The notes beneath the pieces are model-generated. The model searched no databases. It was not told where the DNA came from and worked only from the letters and a program-made list of their open reading frames with translations. A DNA stretch of 64,000 nt, taken from the NCBI GenBank assembly GCA_963848295.1, contig CAWKDB010000011.1, positions 256,001 through 320,000 of the forward strand. Direction: 5' to 3'. The translations under genes and the position numbers were made by a program. The DNA comes from an uncultured delta proteobacterium. Lineage in GTDB: Bacteria; Myxococcota_A; Polyangia; Haliangiales; Haliangiaceae. Position 1 is the first letter of the stretch. The number at the start of each line of letters is the position of its first letter. Shown in pieces: positions 49,783 through 64,000 of this stretch.

Positions 49783-52700
49783 TCAGCTCAAGACGTGCGC
49801 TCGGCCGGCTTCGATCGCGATGAGCTCGCGCGCTTGCGCCAGCTGGACCCCGCGGGCGACCCGCTCGGTGACTCGCGAATCGATCCGGCCGTAGCCGAGC
49901 AATCGGGCCGCATCGCGCACGAGGTCGGCGCTCGAGATGCCACCCGCGCGCTCGACGACGACGCGCGCCGCCGCGGCTAGCTCGGACAGCGGGACCTCGG
50001 CGATATCGCGCCGCGTGCCGGGCGCGCTGCTCGCGACGCGAACGCCGGGCAGCGTCGCCGGATCTTGATCGACGCGCCACACCACGCCCTGCTCGTCACC
50101 GAGTCGGCCGCGACCGGTGATCGCCGCCTTCACTTGGGCGGAGACCTCGGGAGTCATTCGACCGACGCCGAAGTACGCACCGACTCGCCGCGCGAGCAGA
50201 TCGACGTGCATCGGCGCTTCGGCGGCGAGCACTTGCTCGACGACCTTGCCGAGCTCGGCGCCGTGGCGCGCTGCGAACATGTCGTCGGGGGCGCGCCGGC
50301 CGGCTGGAATCGCGGCGGCGACGTACGGCGCGATCGCGATCGCACCGCGGGCCAGCCGCATCGGCGTGGTCTGTGCGTTGTCGATCGAACCGCACAGCGG
50401 CGCGGGCCCGGATCCCGACGCGAGCTCGGCCGTAACCGCGGTCGGTCGCGAACCGCGAGCCGGCACCGTGCCGCGTGCGAACCGCGGAGCCGCGGTCGGT
50501 CCGGTCGCGACCCGTTTCTGGCGCAGCGCCGCGATCGCTGCGACGATCGCGCCGTGGGCGCGCTGGATCTCGCGCTCGGAGTCGTACCACCAGTCGAACG
50601 ACCAGATCCGATGCGTCCGCCAGCCGAGCTGCGCGAGCTGCTGCGCGCGCAACCGGTCGCGATCGCGCGCCGACCCCGCCGACGCGTAGCCCTCGCCGTC
50701 GTGCTCGATCGCGAGCACGAACCGCGCATCGTCGTCGGGATCGACGACCGCGAGATCGAGCTTGTACGGTCCGACCCCGACGCGATGGCGCAGCGTCCAG
50801 CCTCGATCCATCAGCGCGCGCGCGATCGCTGCGGTGATCGGGCTCGCCGGCGCCGCGCCCGCGGAGCACCCGACGCCGCCACCCGCGCGCGCGAACCGCA
50901 ATAGCTCGGCGAGCTCGCGATGGGCGGGCGCGTCACCGAGAGCGTCGCCGAGCTCGTCGCCGAGCGCGGCCGGATCGTGCGGCGACACGACGACCAGCTG
51001 ATCTCTCGCGCGCGTGACCGCGACGTTGAGCCAGCTCTCTCCCTGCGGCATCGCGAGCGCGTCGAACGGCCCGTAGGCGGCGAGGACGATGACGTCGCGC
51101 TCGTCGCCCATCATGCGATCCGGGGTCGCGACCAAGACGTGCTCGACCCGGGCCGCTTCGAGCTTGGCTTCGAGCTCGCCGCGGATCTCCGCGGATAGCG
51201 CGACGATCGCGACCGATCGGCCGCGTCTCACGGCCTCGCCGATCGCGGCGTCGCTCGTTCCGTCGCGCCAGGAGACGCCGCGCTCGCCCGTGCGTTGCGC
51301 GGCCGGCAGCACCTGGATACGACCCGCGTACGTGCGCGTCGCGGGCAGCGCGAACAGATCCTCGTGCCGGCTGCGATAGTGAGCGCCGAGCAGCAGCACC
51401 GGCAACCCGGCGGCGATCGCGTCCGCGTAGAGCCCGGGGCCGCGCGCCGGCGAGAGCTGACGATCGTCGCCGATCACGATGACCGCGTTCGCGCGAGCGA
51501 GCGCTCCGAGCGCCGCTCCCGTCGGTAACCGCGACGCCTCGTCGAAGATCACGACATCGAACGGTGGCCGCACCGGATCGAGATGCGCAGCGACCGCCGC
51601 CGGTGTCGCGAGCACGCACGCAGCGGTTCGAGCGGCCAACGCGCGCGCGCGACCGAGCGCGAGCGTGCTGCGTTCGAGCTCGCCGAACGAGGTGATCCGC
51701 GCGTGGTGCGCCGCGCCGTCGAAGCGAGCGAGGGCCGGCCACCGCGCGAGCTCGCTATCCGCCCACCCGAGCAACGTCGCGCGCTCCCACGTCGCGGCGA
51801 GCTCGGCGGCAGCAACCTCGCCGCGATCGATCGCCGCGATCGCCGCGTGGATGCTCGCATCGACCGCCGCGCGGCGCGCGAGCTGGTAACGCACCCAGTC
51901 GGCGAGCGCTGGCGCCAGCGGCGACAACAGCTCTAGTTGGTCGCGCAGCTGGACGAGGTGATCGGCGCCGGAGCCGAGCGCCGATTCGGCGATGCCGGTC
52001 GCGGCGGCGAGCGCGGCGAGCGCGGCGCGCCAGCGCACGGTGGCAGCCGCCAGGGTCGCGAATGCGGTGAGCTCTGTGCCGGTCTCGCCCGTCGTCGCGG
52101 CGACCTGCGCGACCAACGCGCGCCACGCCGCTTGCTTCGCGGTCTCGCCGCCGTGCACGGTCACTTGATCGAACGCGCGCCGCAGCTCGCCGGCCCACGT
52201 CACCGCGGTCTCGAGGCTGCCGAGCGACGCCGCGAGCAGATCCGCGGATACCAGGTCGCCGAACCACCGCCGCGCCGGCTCGGATGCCGCGAGCAACGCC
52301 GCCCGGCACGCGCGCTCCGCGATCACCGCCTCGAGCGCGGTGACCATGGCCGCGTCGCTCTCGAGGTGACCGGCGGCGCGGACCTGCGCTCGCGCGGTGC
52401 GCAGCGCGAGGTAGCGCACTGGCGCGGCGCTGTGCGACCAGCGGCGGAGTTGCGTCCACAACGCGGACGCGTCGAGCGTCTCGCACGGGGCGACGTCGCC
52501 GAACGTCGACTCGACCTCGGTCACGAGCGCGCGATGACGCGTCGCGATCGCGAGAAACGCGGTCGGATCGCGGGGCACGTCGAGCGTGCCGACGCCGCGC
52601 GCGCGAAGCAGCGCGATCTTCTCGTCGAGATCGTCCTTCGCGCTGCGTACGGTCGTCAGCAACTCGGCGCCGGGTCGCGCCGACGCGGCAGCGAGCCGAG

Positions 52701-54237
52701 CGAGCTCGCCGAGCGCGACGAGCTGTTCGGGCGTCCGCGACATCAGACCGGGGACGAGCGCGGCGACCTCCGCGAGCGCGGCGGCGAGCTCGTCGACCGC
52801 GATGCGCGCTTCGCCCAACGCGGCGCTGGCCGTCGTGACGCACGCGTCGCTATCGGCGTTCAGCCGATCGACGTTCGCGGCCCGCCACGGGTGAGTCGCG
52901 ACCGGCTCGACCGCAGCGGCAGCGGTCGCGAGCTCGGTGACCGCGCGCCTGCGGCGTTCGAACGTGTGGCGATCGAGCGACGGCGCATCGGCCTCGGCGA
53001 GGGCAGCGCACGGCGCGGTGCGCAGCTCGACCAGCCGACCGAGCGCGGCGTGCATCGACATGCCGAAGCCGCCAACCGCGTGCAACGCGCGAGCATAATC
53101 GTCGAGGGCGGTGCGAGCTTCGCCGAGCCGAGCCGGATCGCGCGGGCCGCGCGGTGGCTGCGCCGGGCGAGTGACTCGAGCGAGCGCCGCCGCCGGCACA
53201 GGAGCTTTGTCGAGGTTGACGCACAGGTCGCCGAGCCCGATCGCGGCGAGCCGGTCGTGCACGACGTCGAGCGCGAGCGTGCGATCGCTGACCACGAGCG
53301 CGGTCTTGCCGAGCGCCGCGCAATGCGCGATCGCGTTCGCGATCGTCTGCGACTTTCCGCTGCCCGGCGGCCCCGCAAGCACGAAGCTCTCGCCGGCGCC
53401 GATCGCGGCGATCGCGGCGATCTGACTCGCATCGGCGTCGAGCGGTGCGGTCACGCTGTCGAGCTCGGTCGGCGCCGTAAACGTCGGCCCCTCGGCCTGA
53501 GGAGTCGACCGTCCTTCGCTTCGCGCGGACAGCCGATCGATCGATCGGCCTCGGGGCGCGAGCGCTGGCGGAGTCGCGTCGCCGCACAGCCACGCGATCG
53601 GCGCGCGATCGAGCGCGGCATCATCGAGGCTATCGAGATCGCGCCGCAGGTCGTGAGCGGCAAACGACAGCGCGACCAGCCGAGCCGCGCGGTCGAGCGT
53701 CCACCCCGGCTGGGCTTCGGCGAGCGCAGCGGCCGCATCGAGTAGCGTCGCGAGATCGCCGTCGGCGCCGAGCACGTGGCCGCGTTCGGCGAGCGCTTCG
53801 ACGAGCGGCTGATTGATTCGCGGCAACGCGCCGGTCGCGGCGACGAGCCTGAGCCCACCCGGCGCGCGTTGCAGCTCGACCGGCATCAGCCACAGCGGCG
53901 CGAGGGCTCCGCCGTCCCAGCCGAGCAAGCCCGCCGCGAGCCACAAGCCGTGGCTGCCTTCGGCGCGGGCATCGTCGGCGGCGCGGCGCAGCGCGCGCAG
54001 CTCGCGGGCGAGGTCGTCGGCGGCCATCGCGATCCGCAGCCGGCCGACCTCGAGCGCGCCGGCCTCCCCGGCCTCGACGACATAGCCCGAGCCCGCGGCG
54101 AGCGCGAACGAGATCCGGATCGGATCGACGCCGGCGAGCGCGAGCCCGTGGTCGCGGAGCTCGACCAGCGAGTCGCTGGCGGGATCGAGGAGTGACTGCG
54201 TCCAGGTTGCGATGCGCGCGCGCGCGGCGGGGGTCAC
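49783..54237 (-). CDS. DUF4011 / SF1 helicase / Vsr-like nuclease / DUF3320 protein
   Basis: N-terminal LLD...LAPLWLMPVEL...IN (DUF4011-like); GPPGSGKSQTIAN, DEAS, GDDRQL, HYRS, GDERD, LNVAVTRAR; KLDLAV...AIEHDG...RDRDRLR...LGW...IWS nuclease; C-terminal winged-helix-like part. Confidence 0.82.
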   Translation of the reverse strand: MTPAARARIATWTQSLLDPASDSLVELRDHGLALAGVDPIRISFALAAGSGYVVEAGEAGALEVGRLRIAMAADDLARELRALRRAADDARAEGSHGLWLAAGLLGWDGGALAPLWLMPVELQRAPGGLRLVAATGALPRINQPLVEALAERGHVLGADGDLATLLDAAAALAEAQPGWTLDRAARLVALSFAAHDLRRDLDSLDDAALDRAPIAWLCGDATPPALAPRGRSIDRLSARSEGRSTPQAEGPTFTAPTELDSVTAPLDADASQIAAIAAIGAGESFVLAGPPGSGKSQTIANAIAHCAALGKTALVVSDRTLALDVVHDRLAAIGLGDLCVNLDKAPVPAAALARVTRPAQPPRGPRDPARLGEARTALDDYARALHAVGGFGMSMHAALGRLVELRTAPCAALAEADAPSLDRHTFERRRRAVTELATAAAAVEPVATHPWRAANVDRLNADSDACVTTASAALGEARIAVDELAAALAEVAALVPGLMSRTPEQLVALGELARLAAASARPGAELLTTVRSAKDDLDEKIALLRARGVGTLDVPRDPTAFLAIATRHRALVTEVESTFGDVAPCETLDASALWTQLRRWSHSAAPVRYLALRTARAQVRAAGHLESDAAMVTALEAVIAERACRAALLAASEPARRWFGDLVSADLLAASLGSLETAVTWAGELRRAFDQVTVHGGETAKQAAWRALVAQVAATTGETGTELTAFATLAAATVRWRAALAALAAATGIAESALGSGADHLVQLRDQLELLSPLAPALADWVRYQLARRAAVDASIHAAIAAIDRGEVAAAELAATWERATLLGWADSELARWPALARFDGAAHHARITSFGELERSTLALGRARALAARTAACVLATPAAVAAHLDPVRPPFDVVIFDEASRLPTGAALGALARANAVIVIGDDRQLSPARGPGLYADAIAAGLPVLLLGAHYRSRHEDLFALPATRTYAGRIQVLPAAQRTGERGVSWRDGTSDAAIGEAVRRGRSVAIVALSAEIRGELEAKLEAARVEHVLVATPDRMMGDERDVIVLAAYGPFDALAMPQGESWLNVAVTRARDQLVVVSPHDPAALGDELGDALGDAPAHRELAELLRFARAGGGVGCSAGAAPASPITAAIARALMDRGWTLRHRVGVGPYKLDLAVVDPDDDARFVLAIEHDGEGYASAGSARDRDRLRAQQLAQLGWRTHRIWSFDWWYDSEREIQRAHGAIVAAIAALRQKRVATGPTAAPRFARGTVPARGSRPTAVTAELASGSGPAPLCGSIDNAQTTPMRLARGAIAIAPYVAAAIPAGRRAPDDMFAARHGAELGKVVEQVLAAEAPMHVDLLARRVGAYFGVGRMTPEVSAQVKAAITGRGRLGDEQGVVWRVDQDPATLPGVRVASSAPGTRRDIAEVPLSELAAAARVVVERAGGISSADLVRDAARLLGYGRIDSRVTERVARGVQLAQARELIAIEAGRAHVLS

Positions 54238-58739: not shown

Positions 58740-59153
58740 TCAAATGGGCGGGCCCTCGGCGATGAGACGATCGACCAACGGGCGATCGGCGGCCAAGATC
58801 GGTTTTTGGTCGAGCTCGTCGCTTGCGAGCCACGCGAGGTCGGCAACCTCGACGGCGCGAGCGACCTCGCCCGGCAGGAGCCGGCACGCGTAGACGAGCA
58901 TGACGAGGTCGAACGCCGGATAGGCGTGGAACAACACGTCCCAGATCCGGCCGACCTCGACCGCGATGCCGAGCTCCTCGTGCAGCTCGCGGGCGAGTGC
59001 GGCGGCGGGAGCTTCGCCGGCCTCGACCTTGCCACCCGGGAATTCCCACTCGAGCGGCAGCGCTTGATCGGCGCGGCGCTGCGAGATCAACACGCGGCGA
59101 TCGGGCCCGACGATCAACCCGGCGACGACGAGCACGCGCTTGCGATCGGTCAC
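58740..59153 (-). CDS. NUDIX hydrolase (MutT/NudG-like)
   Basis: WEFPGGKVEAGEAPAAALARELHEELG Nudix box. Confidence 0.92.
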   Translation of the reverse strand: MTDRKRVLVVAGLIVGPDRRVLISQRRADQALPLEWEFPGGKVEAGEAPAAALARELHEELGIAVEVGRIWDVLFHAYPAFDLVMLVYACRLLPGEVARAVEVADLAWLASDELDQKPILAADRPLVDRLIAEGPPI

Positions 59154-59938
59154 GCTGACTCCAGCGCGGTGATGTCGCGATACGGCGTGACGTCGGGAGC
59201 GCCATCGGCGAACAGATAGTGAGCCACGCGCCCGCGTTCGATCGCCGCGATCGTCGAGCTGCGGGTGCCATAGGTCGGGCTGTAGATGCAGGTGGCGGTC
59301 AGCTCTCGCGCCAGCTCATGCGGTAGGTGTGACGGCGGGACCTGGTCGATCGGAGAGCGTTCGCGATTGCCGAGCGCGGTGCGCAGGCGGCTCTCGAGCA
59401 TCGCCCAGCCGCGGCCGCCCGGGAGCGCGAGCACCTGATCGATCGCCGCGCGCAACCGGTCGCCGCCCGGGAAGCCGGGGGACCCGAGCCGATCGTTCGC
59501 GAGCACGTGCACGCCGTGCGCTAGCGCCGCGGTGTCGAGCGCGCCGGCCTCGCGCCGCGTGTACGCGACCGACACGCGATCGGCGTCGCCCCACACGAGG
59601 TTCATGCTCGCATACGCGCGCGGATCGAGCGCGGCGATGTAACCATCGGGATCGTCGGTGATCGCGAGCTCGCGCACGACCGTGCCGCGCGACTTCAAGC
59701 TAGCCGGACGGTCGGCCCCGATGGAGCGATGATTTGTCACCGCCGCGAACCGCCCATCGGCCCGGATCGCGAGCCACGTACCGCCGGCTTGTACGTCGAT
59801 GCCACCGACGACCGCGCCGTGTGACGTGTGGGCGAGCACTTCAGGTCCACGCGTCGGTCGCGCGTACAGCTCGTCGCGATTCGCGGCGAGTACGACCGGT
59901 GATTCGGCGACTCCGAACAGGATGGCGATCGTGCACAT
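59150..59938 (-). CDS. NRDE/TANGO2 family protein
   Basis: MCTI, AANRDE, GGTWL, AAVTN, SRG, YGTRSST. Confidence 0.92.
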   Translation of the reverse strand: MCTIAILFGVAESPVVLAANRDELYARPTRGPEVLAHTSHGAVVGGIDVQAGGTWLAIRADGRFAAVTNHRSIGADRPASLKSRGTVVRELAITDDPDGYIAALDPRAYASMNLVWGDADRVSVAYTRREAGALDTAALAHGVHVLANDRLGSPGFPGGDRLRAAIDQVLALPGGRGWAMLESRLRTALGNRERSPIDQVPPSHLPHELARELTATCIYSPTYGTRSSTIAAIERGRVAHYLFADGAPDVTPYRDITALESA

Positions 59939-60014
59939 GCGACGAAGAAAGTATGGGAGGTAACGTGCGGCGCGCCTTGCATGTAGCGCCTGCGGAACCT
60001 ACAGTGCCGCGGAG

Positions 60015-60530
60015 ATGAGACTGTATCCAGGGAAGGTCGATAGCATCGCCTCCGAGATCATCACTACGCTCACGACAGCCGGTGATATCGAGGTCAGCGA
60101 TGCGAACGAGGCACAGCTCGACATCGCCGCGGTGCTTAAAGAGTACATCCGCGTCGAAAAAGAACTGACCGAGCGGGCCAAAGACATCCTGGAGATCCGC
60201 GGGCTTCCCTACAGCCACCTCGGTCGCACCAAGCGTCAGCTCGCCGAGCAGAAGGAATTCGGCCTGGGCGAAGAGGGCCTGACCTGGATCGCGAGCCAGA
60301 TGCTCGAGGCGTTCATGTCATCGCGCCACGTCGACGAGGTGTTCGCCGACGACGCGATCTTGCGCCGGAAGATCAAGGATATCTGCAAGAAGCATATGCA
60401 GGTCGACGAGGCGATCGACCAAGAAGTGCGCGACCGGATCAAGAACCTCGAAGAAGGTACGCAAGCGTGGGACATCGAGTACGGCAAGGTGCTCGAGCAG
60501 GTCAAAGGCAAGCACGGAATCAAGGAGTAG
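60015..60530 (+). CDS. DUF507-like protein
   Basis: MRLY...IASEI N-terminus; helical; IDQEVRDRIK...G...WDIEY pattern. Confidence 0.75.
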   Translation: MRLYPGKVDSIASEIITTLTTAGDIEVSDANEAQLDIAAVLKEYIRVEKELTERAKDILEIRGLPYSHLGRTKRQLAEQKEFGLGEEGLTWIASQMLEAFMSSRHVDEVFADDAILRRKIKDICKKHMQVDEAIDQEVRDRIKNLEEGTQAWDIEYGKVLEQVKGKHGIKE

Positions 60531-60591
60531 TAGCGGCGGTCACGCTAGAGCTGACGCTTGCTCTTACTCGCGACGGGAGCATCCTTGAAGG

Positions 60592-60993
60592 ATGGGGGCT
60601 CGCGCCATTTGCACCGACTGCATCACCGCCCCGGTGATGGTGTGCGGGCGCTGCCTGGTGACGCTGTGCGAACGTCACGCGCTGGCGCCGAACGAGCGTT
60701 GCGCCGCGTGCGAGCGCGACTGGGGCTGTGACGCATCGACGCGACGCGCGGCGAAGATGATCTTCGCGCCGCCGATCGCGCTGCTGTCGGGCGGGCTGCT
60801 GTTCGGGTTGTTGCTGCCGGTCTCGATCGGGGGAGCGATCGGCGCCGCGGTGATGTGCACGCTCGCGTGCGGTACGGGTGTCAGCGCGGGAGCCGGCGCG
60901 TGCCGGCTGTTCGATCGATCGGCGCGTTCGGTGTTCTTGCGCGAGCGCACGCTGGGCTTACCGCCCGCGCGGCTGTTGCCGAAGCACCGCTGA
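60592..60993 (+). CDS. small Zn-finger (B-box-like) membrane protein
   Basis: CTDC..CGRC..LCERH..CAAC followed by two hydrophobic segments. Confidence 0.6.
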   Translation: MGARAICTDCITAPVMVCGRCLVTLCERHALAPNERCAACERDWGCDASTRRAAKMIFAPPIALLSGGLLFGLLLPVSIGGAIGAAVMCTLACGTGVSAGAGACRLFDRSARSVFLRERTLGLPPARLLPKHR

Positions 60994-61079
60994 CCGTCAG
61001 TGGAATCGGATCTCCGGCCGCTTCGGCTTCGGCTCGTTTGAATCCGGCGAAGGGTGCCGGAATCATCTCCGGCGCGCGC

Positions 61080-61400
61080 TCACCGCGTGAGCCGGAACAG
61101 CATCGCGCGCACGCGATCGAGTGGCGCCTCGATCGCGGCGAAGTCGTCGGCGGTGATGTAGCCGCGCGCCTTGGCGATCATGAGCGCCGTCGACAGCTCG
61201 CGCGCGCTGCCGAAGGCGCGGCGGAACATGTCGGGCCGGTCGAGGCCGGCGCGTGCGCTCGCCTCGGCGATGTTGAGCGCGATGCTCTCGGCGGCGCGGC
61301 CGATCTCGTCGGCGAGCGACTTGCGCCGCGATCGGAGCTTCGGCTCGATCGGAGCGAGCTGTTCGAGGACGGTGAGCGACTGAGCGAGGACGTCGAGCAT
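61080..61400 (-). CDS. four-helix-bundle protein (23S rRNA IVP / Avd-like family), copy A
   Basis: LADEIGRAAESIALNIAEA...FRRAFGSAREL matches the family pattern DQ..RA..S...NIAEG...A.GS..E; AAAGG RBS before ATG at 61400. Confidence 0.88.
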   Translation of the reverse strand: MLDVLAQSLTVLEQLAPIEPKLRSRRKSLADEIGRAAESIALNIAEASARAGLDRPDMFRRAFGSARELSTALMIAKARGYITADDFAAIEAPLDRVRAMLFRLTR

Positions 61401-61422: not shown

Positions 61423-61623
61423 GCGGCGCACCGATCGCCGGGGCCGTCTCGCCCGTCGCGCCGCACTCGCGCCGGCGCCGTGACGAGCGCGGGCACAGAT
61501 CTCCGCACGCGTCGGTCGATCCAACTCTGCGGCGGCCGCTCGCAGGCGTCGGTGGTCTCGGCGCTCGGCGCGGTGCTGGCGCGAAGCGGCGCAGGGCGAC
61601 GGCCACGGCGAATCGGAAGCCGC
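61423..61623 (-). ncRNA. putative structured leader (long hairpin) upstream of four-helix-bundle gene A
   Basis: Outer pairs GCGGC/GCCGC, CCGAT/ATCGG, CGCCG/CGGCG, GGCCGTC/GACGGCC; core shared with 61912-62108. Confidence 0.6.
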
Positions 61624-61638
61624 GGGTGCGAAAGGTGG

Positions 61639-61884
61639 CGGCATCGGCATCGGCTGCGGCGACGGCTGCGGCTGCGGCGACGGCGGCGGCTGCGGCGACG
61701 GCACCGGCTTCGGCTGCGGCGACGGCGGCGGCTGCGGCGACGGCACCGGCTTCGGCTGCGGCTGCGGCGACGGCTACGGCTGCGGCGGCGGCTGCGGCTG
61801 CGGCGACGGCGACGGCGACGGCGGCGGCTGCGGCGACGGCGACGGCTGCGGCTTCGGCGACGGCGACGGCGACGGCGACGGCCT
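61639..61884. repeat. (CGGC-NN)41 hexamer array
   Basis: 41 consecutive in-phase units with invariant CGGC and variable NN (GA, TG, GG, TT, AC, AT, TA, CT). Confidence 0.95.
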
Positions 61885-61911
61885 TGGAACACTCGACGCT
61901 CCTTCGCTCGC

Positions 61912-62108
61912 GCCGATGGGCGGAACGTCTCTCTCGCCCTGCGCCGCTTCGCGCTTGTCCCGCGCCGAGCGCCGAGTGCGCCGGCGTGTGAGAGCGACCG
62001 CCGCGGAGTTGATCGGCCGGCGAGTGCGGTGGTCAGCGCCCGCGCTCGTCACGGGACCCGCGCGAGTGCGGCGCGACGGGCGAGAGAGAGACGTTCCTAC
62101 CCATCGGC
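61912..62108 (+). ncRNA. putative structured leader (long hairpin) upstream of four-helix-bundle gene B
   Basis: GCCGATGGG-C-GGAACGTCTCTCTCGCCC pairs with GGGCGAGAGAGAGACGTTCC-TA-CCCATCGGC; inner helix GACCGCCGC/GCGGTGGTC; followed by GGAGG RBS. Confidence 0.65.
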
Positions 62109-62129: not shown

Positions 62130-62453
62130 ATGTCGTTCTACGCCCTCGACTTCGCCCTCGCCGTCCTGCACCAGCTCGCCCCGATCGAGGCCAAGGTCCG
62201 CCGCACGCGCAAGTCACTCGCCGACGAGATCGTCCGCGCCGGCGAGAGCGTCGCGCTCAACCTCAGCGAGGGCCGCATGCGTGTCGGGCTCGATCGCCCC
62301 GACTTCTATCGCCGCGCCGCCGGCAGCGCGAGCGAGCTCACGACCGCCCTCCTGATCGCGCGCGCCCGCGGCATCATCTCCGCCGAGGACTTCGCCGCGG
62401 TCGACGAGCCGCTCGACCACGTGCGCGCGATCCTCTGGCGGCTCACGCACTAG
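62130..62453 (+). CDS. four-helix-bundle protein (23S rRNA IVP / Avd-like family), copy B
   Basis: LADEIVRAGESVALNLSEG...YRRAAGSASEL; 67/106 identities to copy A by manual ungapped alignment. Confidence 0.9.
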   Translation: MSFYALDFALAVLHQLAPIEAKVRRTRKSLADEIVRAGESVALNLSEGRMRVGLDRPDFYRRAAGSASELTTALLIARARGIISAEDFAAVDEPLDHVRAILWRLTH

Positions 62454-62633
62454 CGCTTGCGCCGGCCGCCGCGCCGGCGAAACCGATTTCGGCGCCCTTC
62501 GCGCAAGGCAACAACAACCCGGAGCGCCTGGAGCGCCGAGCACCCAAGCGGCGCGGGGTGTCAGCAAGAGAACGTCGCCTCGTTAGCAGCAGGAGCTGAT
62601 AGATGTGTCGCCGATGTCTCGAGCAGTTCGCGA

Positions 62634-62771
62634 CGGCGACGGCGACGGCGACGGTATCGGTATCGGCATCGGCATCGGCGTCGGCGACGGCGTCGGCTTC
62701 GGCGACGGCGTCGGCTTCGGCGACGGCGTCGGCTTCGGCGACGGCTCCGGCGACGGCTTCGGCGACGGCTT
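62634..62771. repeat. (CGGC-NN)23 hexamer array
   Basis: 23 in-phase units CGG(C/T)NN, including a repeated 18-mer CGGCGA-CGGCGT-CGGCTT. Confidence 0.93.
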
Positions 62772-62775
62772 CCGG

Positions 62776-63540
62776 TCACGCGACGGGCTTGATGCCCATC
62801 GCCTCGAGGATCTCGCCGACCACCATCTCGCCGAGGCGTTGGATCTGCTGCTCGCCCTCGGCGACCGAGGCCGCGGCCGGATCGCCGGCGTACGCGAGCT
62901 CCATGCCCATCGCCTGAAACGTCGTGACGCCGGCCCCGAGCTGATCGCTCAAGCTGATCGGCACCGGCGCCAGCACGCCGCGCATCGAGTCGTTCACGAA
63001 CTCGGGAGCCGCGGCCATCATGATCGAGGTCTCGTAGCGCCCGGCGTGACACTGGCCGCTCTTGAATTCGGCAGATAGCGTACGCGCCCAGCGCTTCGTC
63101 AACGGGCACGCGACGATGACCTTGCTGCCGCGACCCTCGAGCACCGCGCGCACTGCGGCGTCGTGCGCTGGCTCGAGGTGGTTGTTGACGAGGCACACGT
63201 GGCGAAGCCCGCTCGCGAGCAGGCCGTCGCACACCGCCGCGAGGTACGCGGTCAACACCGTCGCAGGAATCGACACCGCGCCGGCAAACCCGGTCGCGCA
63301 CTCGGTGACGCCGTAGCTGACCGCGGGCGCGATCACGCCGACCATCGTGCCGCGCTTCTCCAGCAACTCGGCCGCTCGCAGGCAAGCCGCGGCCGAGATC
63401 ACGACGTCGGTGCCGAGCCCCAGGTGCGGGCCGTGCGGCTCCGTCGATCCGATCGGCACGAGCGCGATGACGCCGCGCTTGCCGCCTACCAAGTCGGTCA
63501 GGCTCGCGGTGGTGTGGCGAGCCAGGAACTTTTCGGTCAC
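62776..63540 (-). CDS. creatininase family protein
   Basis: [30 protein letters not shown]. Confidence 0.9.
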
Positions 63541-64000
63541 CGCAGCTCTCCTCGTGCTTCGCGCTCGATCAGCAGCTTCTTGTCGACCTTGCCGCGATCG
63601 TTCTTCGGCAGATCGTCGACGAACACGATCCAGCGCGGGTACTTGTGCTTCGACAGCTTCGTTTGCACGAAGCTCTTTAGCTCGGTTTCGAGTGCCGCGC
63701 GATCACCTCGGCGCGCTTCCGGGCGCAACACGATCACCGCCTTGGGCTTGGTCAGGCCGGCGTCGTCCGCCGGAATCACCGCCGCGACCGACACCGCCGG
63801 GTGGGCGAGCAGGCACTCTTCGACCTCGCGCGGCGCGACGAAGATGCCGCCGACCTTGAACAGATCGTCGGCGCGGCCCGAAAAGTACAGGTAGCCGCGC
63901 GCGTCGATCGAGAACAGATCGCCGGTGCGGCACCAATGGCCGTGAAACGTGGTCCAGCTCTTGTCGCGGTCTTGGAAGTAGCCGTGCGCGACGCTGTCGC
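63537..64000 (-). CDS. AMP-dependent acyl/benzoate-CoA ligase, C-terminal part (truncated by window edge)
   Basis: Manual translation: GYF...WCRTGDLF...YFSGRADDLFKVGGIFVAPREVEECL...HKYPRW...LPKNDRGKV. Confidence 0.9.
   Translation of the reverse strand, partial: DSVAHGYFQDRDKSWTTFHGHWCRTGDLFSIDARGYLYFSGRADDLFKVGGIFVAPREVEECLLAHPAVSVAAVIPADDAGLTKPKAVIVLRPEARRGDRAALETELKSFVQTKLSKHKYPRWIVFVDDLPKNDRGKVDKKLLIEREARGELR

Follow-up and report, generated by a model that had tools for sequence, protein, structure and literature searches.

Two hairpins of about 200 nt in the window (the whole 64,000-nt stretch of DNA that was analysed) belong to a mobile hairpin repeat family that occurs in one group of soil myxobacteria and is apparently undescribed. 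The strand assignment, the loop of fixed length, the selection on the arms and the link to HNH genes are new here. We tentatively regard the hairpin as a single-strand signal for the end or the recognition of selfish modules, with an Avd-like protein as the adaptor and an enzyme that acts in trans, a reading that is possible rather than probable. No description of the element was found in the literature searched, beyond whose reach lay most subscription papers and supplements.

Organisation of the cassette

The two hairpins lie back to back inside a cassette of two modules on opposite strands. Module A begins with a degenerate short left array and a conserved 3' tail (61000..61079, - strand), which abut the stop of a host gene ending at 60993. 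Gene A (61080..61400, - strand) encodes an Avd-like four-helix-bundle protein of 106 aa (PF05635/TIGR02436). Hairpin A is found at 61423..61623, where the + strand, antisense to gene A, is the one predicted to fold and is matched by a covariance model at 61445-61602 (+). Its unstructured loop of 70 nt (61491..61560) carries a central motif, which in gene sense reads CCGCCGCnnAGnTG (61522..61535, - strand). A central (GGCNNC)n hexamer array (61633..61890, + strand), about 90-390 nt long and different in each cassette copy, separates this hairpin from hairpin B (61912..62108), for which folding in the family as a whole is predicted on the - strand, antisense to gene B (model match 61931-62087, -). 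The loop of hairpin B is 69 nt long (61973..62041), with the same central motif at 61998..62011 (+ strand). Gene B (62130..62453, + strand) encodes a four-helix-bundle protein of 107 aa that is about two-thirds identical to A. It is followed by the conserved tail of module B (62454..62629, + strand), which is full in five of ten copies and truncated in the rest, and by the right (GGCNNC)n array (62633..62772, + strand), which abuts the stop codon of a host creatininase-family gene (62776).

The original prediction described two leaders that share four sequence blocks, and these were found where it had placed them in both copies: at 61579-61599, 61557-61572, 61478-61494 and 61447-61472 on the - strand in copy A, and at 61934-61954, 61961-61976, 62038-62054 and 62060-62085 in copy B, whose outer arms are 61912-61933 and 62086-62108. 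The gap between the end of the stem and the ATG, predicted to be about 21-22 nt, measures 22 nt in A and 21 nt in B. Both copies are thus real; what the prediction overlooked is that they are only members of a mobile family with 23 copies in the genome.

Several other features of the region were recorded. The B tail (62454-62629) contains inverted CTGACA/TGTCAG-like boxes, possibly a regulator site or an inward promoter, and a segment related to it lies reversed at the left end of another cassette, c4 (G000:C2 ~1460900-1461040, where G000 is this genome). In run X2 (window 61516 to 62015) one contig joins modules A and B on opposite strands, a pattern as expected of an A/B chimera or of an inversion of the central array. 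The host genes at 58740-60993 (NUDIX, TANGO2/NRDE, DUF507 and a small cysteine-rich membrane protein) are convergent with those at 62776-64000, of which one is of the creatininase family and the other acyl-CoA ligase-like; the DUF507 and cysteine-rich genes remain near the creatininase gene in many congeners. Elsewhere in the window, a 1484-aa frame (49783-54237, - strand) with helicase-like motifs and a very-short-patch-type nuclease-like region appears defence-like by eye.

A covarying stem and a loop of fixed length

Both hairpins fold better than their dinucleotide shuffles (z -6.2 for B and -5.1 for A), and none of 200 shuffles equals either. The outer stems pair with their own partners at 11 of 13 positions in A and 13 of 13 in B, compared with 6 of 13 and 7 of 13 crosswise. 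The claim that these stems covary was borne out on average among 34 homologues (own-arm mean 12.4 vs 10.1 crosswise), but a strict preference for the own arm was found in only 7 of 34, because similar outer stems are common to many homologues. Covariation is strong in the inner stem. Two-sided changes affect 16 pairs in the 34 homologues, against 7.2 in shuffled alignments. On the antisense strand, 87.4% of the cells are paired (81.3% when shuffled) and the inner helix is 97% paired, with double changes in 23 of 34 at one pair; these values refer to a structure that was hand-specified from the same sequences, and to homologues that are kin and not independent.

The stem is approximately 45 bp long and encloses a loop of about 70 nt. 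The interior that had been described as rod-like is actually an unstructured loop, the length of which is fixed. It measures 69-72 nt in 34 of 34 aligned leaders, a set chosen because its members have the core; a pattern that allowed 62-80 nt found 119 hairpins, of which 107 have loops in the same range. The exceptions include loops of ~77 nt in genome G113 and ~35-40 nt in G011. The central motif lies at a nearly fixed offset, and no conserved fold was detected inside the loop, where the median z is about 0 and one column pair exceeds the shuffled maximum.

Among ten copies per type, the arms diverge by 0-1.7%, the loops by 6-7% and third codon positions by 8-13%. This pattern supports purifying selection on the arms, as would be expected of a functional structured element. 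Hairpin and protein distances are correlated (rho 0.46, 85 pairs). The perfect outer stems could also stem from hairpin-templated sequence correction rather than from selection. Adenine-specific hypermutation of the loop was considered and rejected, as the ten copies show no A-specific excess.

An Rfam search of both strands with E up to 1 found no family match, in agreement with the expectation that the element is not a known riboswitch; the sole match was a chance miRNA match on the repeat array. The idea of a functional structured RNA or ssDNA element is therefore upheld by the covariation, by the selection on the arms and by the absence of an Rfam family, whereas the part of it that placed the fold on the gene-sense strand is not.

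The strand predicted to fold

Stem mismatches are highly asymmetric. In gene sense they comprise 88 CT, 38 AC, 22 TT and 18 CC, compared with 8 GT, 3 GG and 3 AG. The four abundant classes correspond to G·A, G·T, A·A and G·G on the antisense strand, and since G·A and G·T are what the mismatches become there, the antisense strand is the one that likely folds. One antisense pair is U·G in 23 of 34 homologues and U-A in 11. The antisense strand also folds better in 26 of 34 homologues with RNA parameters and in 30 of 34 with DNA parameters. In copy A the difference is clear (z -7.0 vs -4.8 in gene sense), while copy B by energy goes slightly against the rule (-141 kcal/mol in gene sense vs -136 kcal/mol antisense). 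We infer that it is as an antisense single strand that the element works, for which RNA and DNA look alike at the level of sequence. The original prediction of a 5' leader folding in gene orientation runs counter to the mismatch tally, and the reading as an mRNA leader probably concerns the wrong strand.

Copy number, mobility and insertion sites

The unit of module A, array and module B is present in ten copies in the genome, together with a third divergent pair and one single. Among the ten cassettes, A-type proteins are 92-100% identical and B-type proteins 93-100%. A covariance model built from the 34 homologues detects 23 hairpins, leaving out seven further rows that are opposite-strand echoes, and 23 of 23 lie directly before a four-helix gene. 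Six of the ten cassettes are located between convergent host genes. The arrays often abut host stop codons, and insertion is just behind stops. The orientation of upstream neighbours shows no bias (21 vs 17, from crude gene calls).

The ten cassette sites were compared with the closest relative, G112, at ~89-92% DNA identity. Three sites (c8, c9 and c10) are clean and empty in G112. Site c3 is empty as well, and in this genome the 6-bp sequence CTAGCG is duplicated at both ends of the cassette there; this is the one site with a clear target duplication. The site in the window (c1) and c7 hold decayed A remnants in G112, that at c1 being a 178-bp deleted remnant of module A. At c4, c5 and c6 the neighbouring genes of the relative are different, and the stretch of its DNA that was inspected contains no cassette; the tenth site is c2. 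Empty orthologous sites and decayed remnants imply that the cassette is mobile. Consistent with this, none of the 28 other genomes examined has a four-helix gene within 1.5 kb of its creatininase gene, and in 21 of these 28 the other flanking gene lies within that stretch. Site c8 is occupied by an unrelated module in G080. The cassette is multi-copy, has empty orthologous sites and carries no transposase of its own, which are broad features of MITEs and other non-autonomous mobile elements.

The copy trees of A and B have the shape of a star and are mosaic, with four-gamete conflicts at 54-61% of the site pairs and a Mantel rho of 0.12 (p 0.30), and they carry no signal for or against movement of A and B as a unit. 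The hairpins of this genome are inside the cassette, not at its ends, while hairpin pairs in relatives are mostly convergent with the hairpins outside. At G000:C2:1181646-1182653 and at L135, a CGG hexamer array encodes a Pro-Lys repeat at the end of a host gene; the array is present in G112 too, and cassette c3 lies at the stop codon of this gene.

Outside this genome, the covariance-model search found matches in 43 of 60 congeneric genomes (the genus sample, including the unpublished G010), and in none of 57 genomes outside the genus (the class sample). Nearly all close homologues of the protein that were fetched, from metagenome contigs and from genomes labelled Kofleriaceae or Haliangiales, have the hairpin. 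A few do not, such as L014, where the gene lies directly between inverted arrays. Among phages, 46 pattern matches included no convincing model match.

The Avd-like protein and the hexamer arrays

PF05635 proteins are widespread, and to our knowledge no function has been assigned to them outside diversity-generating retroelements (DGRs). The genes downstream of both hairpins match the PF05635 and TIGR02436 profiles of four-helix-bundle proteins. The predicted structure of protein B has four helices (pLDDT 95), and the best PDB matches to this model are XCC0516, BT_0352 and the DGR protein bAvd (4DWL, TM 0.85). In the available part of one study, bAvd contacts the DGR stem-loop via flipped-out bases (10.1101/2023.10.23.563531), and by this analogy it is plausible that the hairpin is the ligand of the downstream protein, as was originally suggested. 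A GxxRxxxSxxxNxxE motif and an occurrence in cas loci are recorded in the accessible text of PMC3936711. Three loci from other families of the same taxonomic order (L025, L039 and L022) have four-helix genes after a short palindrome with a good sigma54-type box, a second hairpin before the RBS, and different hexamer arrays; the L025 palindrome has the same C·A mismatch.

Of 54 (GGCNNC) arrays with at least six units, 42 have a PF05635 gene within 1.5 kb. In the central arrays the variation is confined to positions 4 and 5, which take all four bases, with C the rarest (9 and 34 of 408); fixation reaches 97.5% or more at positions 1, 2, 3 and 6. DGR mutagenesis has a comparable base bias. Upstream six-base periodicity was found at 71 of 84 gene-bearing hairpins, at 2 of 25 without a four-helix gene (29 rows less four wrong-strand duplicates), and in 3 of 300 random windows, counts that come from few independent genomes. 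The hexamer arrays thus accompany the four-helix gene, not the hairpin. In other lineages the array units are GGGAAG, GCAGGA or GAGGGC. The suggestion that the leader is a template RNA for the repeats was not sustained: the loop motif is constant while array units differ, which also led us to reject the motif itself as the template, and no conserved GGCAAC template was found within the module.

The assembly, which is 85% complete, contains three reverse transcriptases (RTs) above the cut-off, all of the group II intron type (YADD). Their frames are at G000:C11:619011-621017, C11:720884-721924 and C2:794426-796393; one is long and two are truncated or frameshifted. A DGR in this genome was rejected on account of this RT type, and because the PF05635 gene near one of the RTs belongs to a different clade. 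No recurring RT neighbour was detected among 101 hairpin loci.

A second cargo: DUF222-like/HNH genes

Clustering of the neighbours at the 101 hairpin loci revealed one recurring partner beyond kinases, low-complexity frames and host genes. This is a protein of ~390 aa with weak DUF222 and HNH Pfam matches, with which Atlas clusters agree, and its HNH catalytic and zinc residues are invariant. Several genomes have multiple copies of the hairpin at loci that lack a four-helix gene, and an HNH gene lies near 17 of 20 such loci that were refetched. In G023, 12 HNH loci (of 13 genes) were fetched; 11 of them have one hairpin, either 5' or 3' of the gene, and the remaining one has a loop-less stem. 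The proportion is 7 of 11 in G027 and 2 of 2 in G005, where, uniquely, inverted hairpins occupy both ends of the element; in G011 it is 2 of 5, with weak matches. Coupling is tight in G003, G005, G023 and G027, and a short-loop variant occurs in G011. The exclusive association with the four-helix gene that a riboswitch-like leader would have is contradicted by the same hairpin standing inverted at the 3' end of HNH genes.

At HNH loci the hairpin always points inward with its tail toward the gene, and thus the 3' end of the folding strand is on the outer side. The HNH genes of G023 have their own TTGACA box between the hairpin and the gene, which are 0.3-0.6 kb apart, and so the hairpin need not be a promoter.

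Members of the HNH family occur in 50 of the 60 congeneric genomes (a tally that includes G010 and G075), and at the best-scoring HNH loci of other genomes the hairpin is found at only 2 of 24. Conversely, G095 has ten hairpin matches and one weak HNH match, and four genomes with hairpins (G034, G035, G080 and G091, assemblies 89-93% complete) gave no HNH match. The two HNH genes of this genome (G000:C10:2181484-2182503 and C2:385081-386022; L297 and L298) have no hairpin. They possess an extra C-terminal extension resembling RuvA_C, a lead from an Atlas cluster, and a 204-nt fragment matches C10:2476947-2477149. The G005 elements (G005:C47:85777-88180, L277; G005:C46, L287) are ~2.4 kb long with inverted hairpins flanking the DUF222-like/HNH gene; in L277, tandem duplications of ~55 nt start right outside the hairpin end. 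Partial duplications of stem and tail lie near G023 loci (e.g., L300, L304, L311, L319 and L321), where most HNH genes have the TTGACA box. At L228 (G002:C114) the hairpin is followed by a GxxExxY (PF13366) gene fragment, possibly a third cargo. An assignment of the HNH cargo to IscB/OMEGA was rejected, as only the HNH part matches, with 33-42 bits against a cut-off of 175.

Possible roles of the hairpin

Under our tentative reading, the hairpin would be a cis-acting end signal that is folded only on the strand antisense to the cargo gene. The single strand, with cDNA or displaced ssDNA somewhat likelier than antisense RNA, may rebuild a dyad site in the stem, CACG-N3-CGTG, which includes one G·A mismatch and one G·T or A-T pair, and a protein would recognise the folded hairpin at this dyad and its conserved mismatches as the module is being copied elsewhere. 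The Avd-like pentamer might be the adaptor that binds the hairpin, as bAvd binds the DGR stem-loop. No enzyme could be tied to the hairpin, and because the cassette encodes none for copying or cutting, the putative enzyme would act in trans. This lack weighs against the reading, as do the majority of HNH loci that have no hairpin, the hairpin-bearing genomes with one weak HNH match or none, the position of the hairpins inside the cassette, a clear target duplication at a single site, the gene-sense folding energy of copy B and the possible origin of the perfect outer stems in sequence correction. The arrays would likely arise from slippage at module ends. The cargo is on one fixed side of the hairpin, and consists of the four-helix gene or, in some lineages, of the DUF222-like/HNH gene. 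A more far-reaching proposal, which we consider somewhat unlikely, is a new class of mobile element, in which a portable single-strand hairpin mobilises any gene on its tail side (Avd-like, DUF222-like/HNH or GxxExxY), the Avd-like pentamer links it to an RT or nuclease of the host, and copying of the module also writes the arrays.

Alternatively, an antisense or read-through RNA, for example an RNase III substrate or a protein site, could tune the cargo, while the module spreads by another route. The purine-rich loops resemble those of RNA, as do the tandem G·A and G·U pairs, and at the six cassettes between convergent genes read-through would give one folded hairpin and one sense mRNA. Related genes occur in 23S rRNA within stems cleaved by RNase III, according to the available part of PMC4990558. 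A regulatory RNA is nevertheless unlikely, given that the hairpin is inverted at HNH 3' ends, lies 0.3-0.6 kb from genes with a promoter-like box of their own, has upstream neighbours without orientation bias, and has arms that are more conserved among recent copies than the protein codons.

Sigma54 promoters follow the pattern GG-N10-GC, in which the GG is invariant. The 3' arm of the hairpin, G[T/G]CACG-N4-GTGC, has this spacing; L022, L025 and L039 have TGGCACG-N4-C[T/C]GC in the short palindrome before the gene; and the loop is of fixed length with no fold of its own. The arms might then be double-stranded protein sites, such as back-to-back sigma54-like promoters spaced by 70 bp around an activator site, and the long complementarity a by-product of palindrome correction. 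This is improbable: 31 of 34 have a T in place of the G at -24, the two arms covary in the variable spacer that the site contains, and the asymmetry of the mismatches requires a folded single strand. Moreover, in this genome the canonical TGGCAC-N5-TTGC is intergenic in 7 of 7 cases and the GT variant in 0 of 5.

It is quite improbable that the module is an RT-dependent retro-element, in which an RT in trans and the Avd-like protein would copy an RNA, the hairpin would be the 3' end of the cDNA, and the arrays would be written from a GGCAAC template by DGR-like adenine mutagenesis. The three RTs of the 85%-complete assembly are all of the group II intron type, the variation of the loop is not A-specific, the module contains no conserved GGCAAC template, and the array units differ in other lineages. 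This has to be set against the DGR-like bias at array positions 4 and 5, the bAvd fold of the modelled protein, the variable truncation of the B tails, and the arrays that accompany the four-helix gene (71/84 vs 2/25).

Finally, the DUF222-like/HNH element might own the hairpin as its native end, with four-helix modules as non-autonomous passengers moved by the HNH protein in trans. This is very improbable, since the tight coupling in four genomes, the G011 variant, the invariant HNH residues and the wide presence of the family are outweighed by the absence of the hairpin at 22 of 24 other HNH loci and at both in this genome, and by several hairpin-rich genomes without a good HNH match.

The PF05635 and DUF222-HNH families are linked here to one covarying, strand-specific structure with a precise conserved motif. 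If the more far-reaching proposal of a new class of mobile element is true, the large orphan PF05635 family, and possibly the DUF222-HNH repeats, gain a substrate and a mechanism. A portable mobilisation tag would represent a new route of gene movement, and a regulatory element a new structured RNA family. The hairpin offers a concrete substrate for assays of binding, cleavage and mobility, together with natural filled, empty and decayed sites.

Comparison with known systems

By the defining features that were tested, the element does not qualify as a DGR, an rRNA intervening sequence, a REP, an attC site or IscB. The likeness to the Avd protein and stem-loop of DGRs includes the fold, a structured nucleic acid beside the gene and adenine-like variation of the arrays; in contrast, there is no DGR RT, TR/VR pair or target gene here. 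No TR/VR pair differing at adenines was found in the loop, and for the arrays, which are suggestive, no template was found. The Avd-binding stem of DGRs is ~9-11 bp with a tetraloop, as given in the available part of 10.1101/2023.10.23.563531, compared with ~45 bp and a 70-nt loop here.

ORF-bearing intervening sequences of 23S rRNA (S23p) likewise combine PF05635 with a long imperfect stem and are selfish, to judge from the accessible text of PMC4990558. There the ORF is in the loop and in rRNA, whereas here it is outside a hairpin that is multi-copy between ordinary genes, and folding is predicted on the antisense strand.

REP/REPIN-RAYT systems share intergenic palindromes with conserved mismatches, often behind stops, and inverted copies can flank an enzyme gene (PMC3733652, available part). 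According to the same source, REPs are 20-40 nt long with a GTAG/CGTC tag and a stem of 8-9 bp, while the present hairpin is ~200 nt long without the tag. The hairpin is also never free of cargo in this genome (23/23), and none of the nine RAYT (PF01797) matches in the genome adjoins any of the 23 hairpins. A REP class, which the original prediction had named as a refuting match, thus fits neither in size nor in tag nor in an adjoining RAYT.

The accessible part of PMC10589994 does no more than name REP13E12/HNH/DUF222 as a class of repeats. The second cargo belongs to the same broad family, most members of which in the genus are without the hairpin. The literature searched contained no description of a terminal hairpin of REP13E12/DUF222-HNH repeats, and no explanation of their mode of movement.

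In integron attC sites and in attP+ of the CTX phage, one strand folds and rebuilds a protein site, and G·T versus A·C asymmetry selects the strand; attC ends have the form RYYYAAC...GTTRRRY. The neighbour clustering of the 101 loci revealed no tyrosine recombinase in or near the modules. The present hairpin is without RYYYAAC/GTTRRRY ends, and it has in common with these sites the same, here predicted, logic of strand folding and a variable loop.
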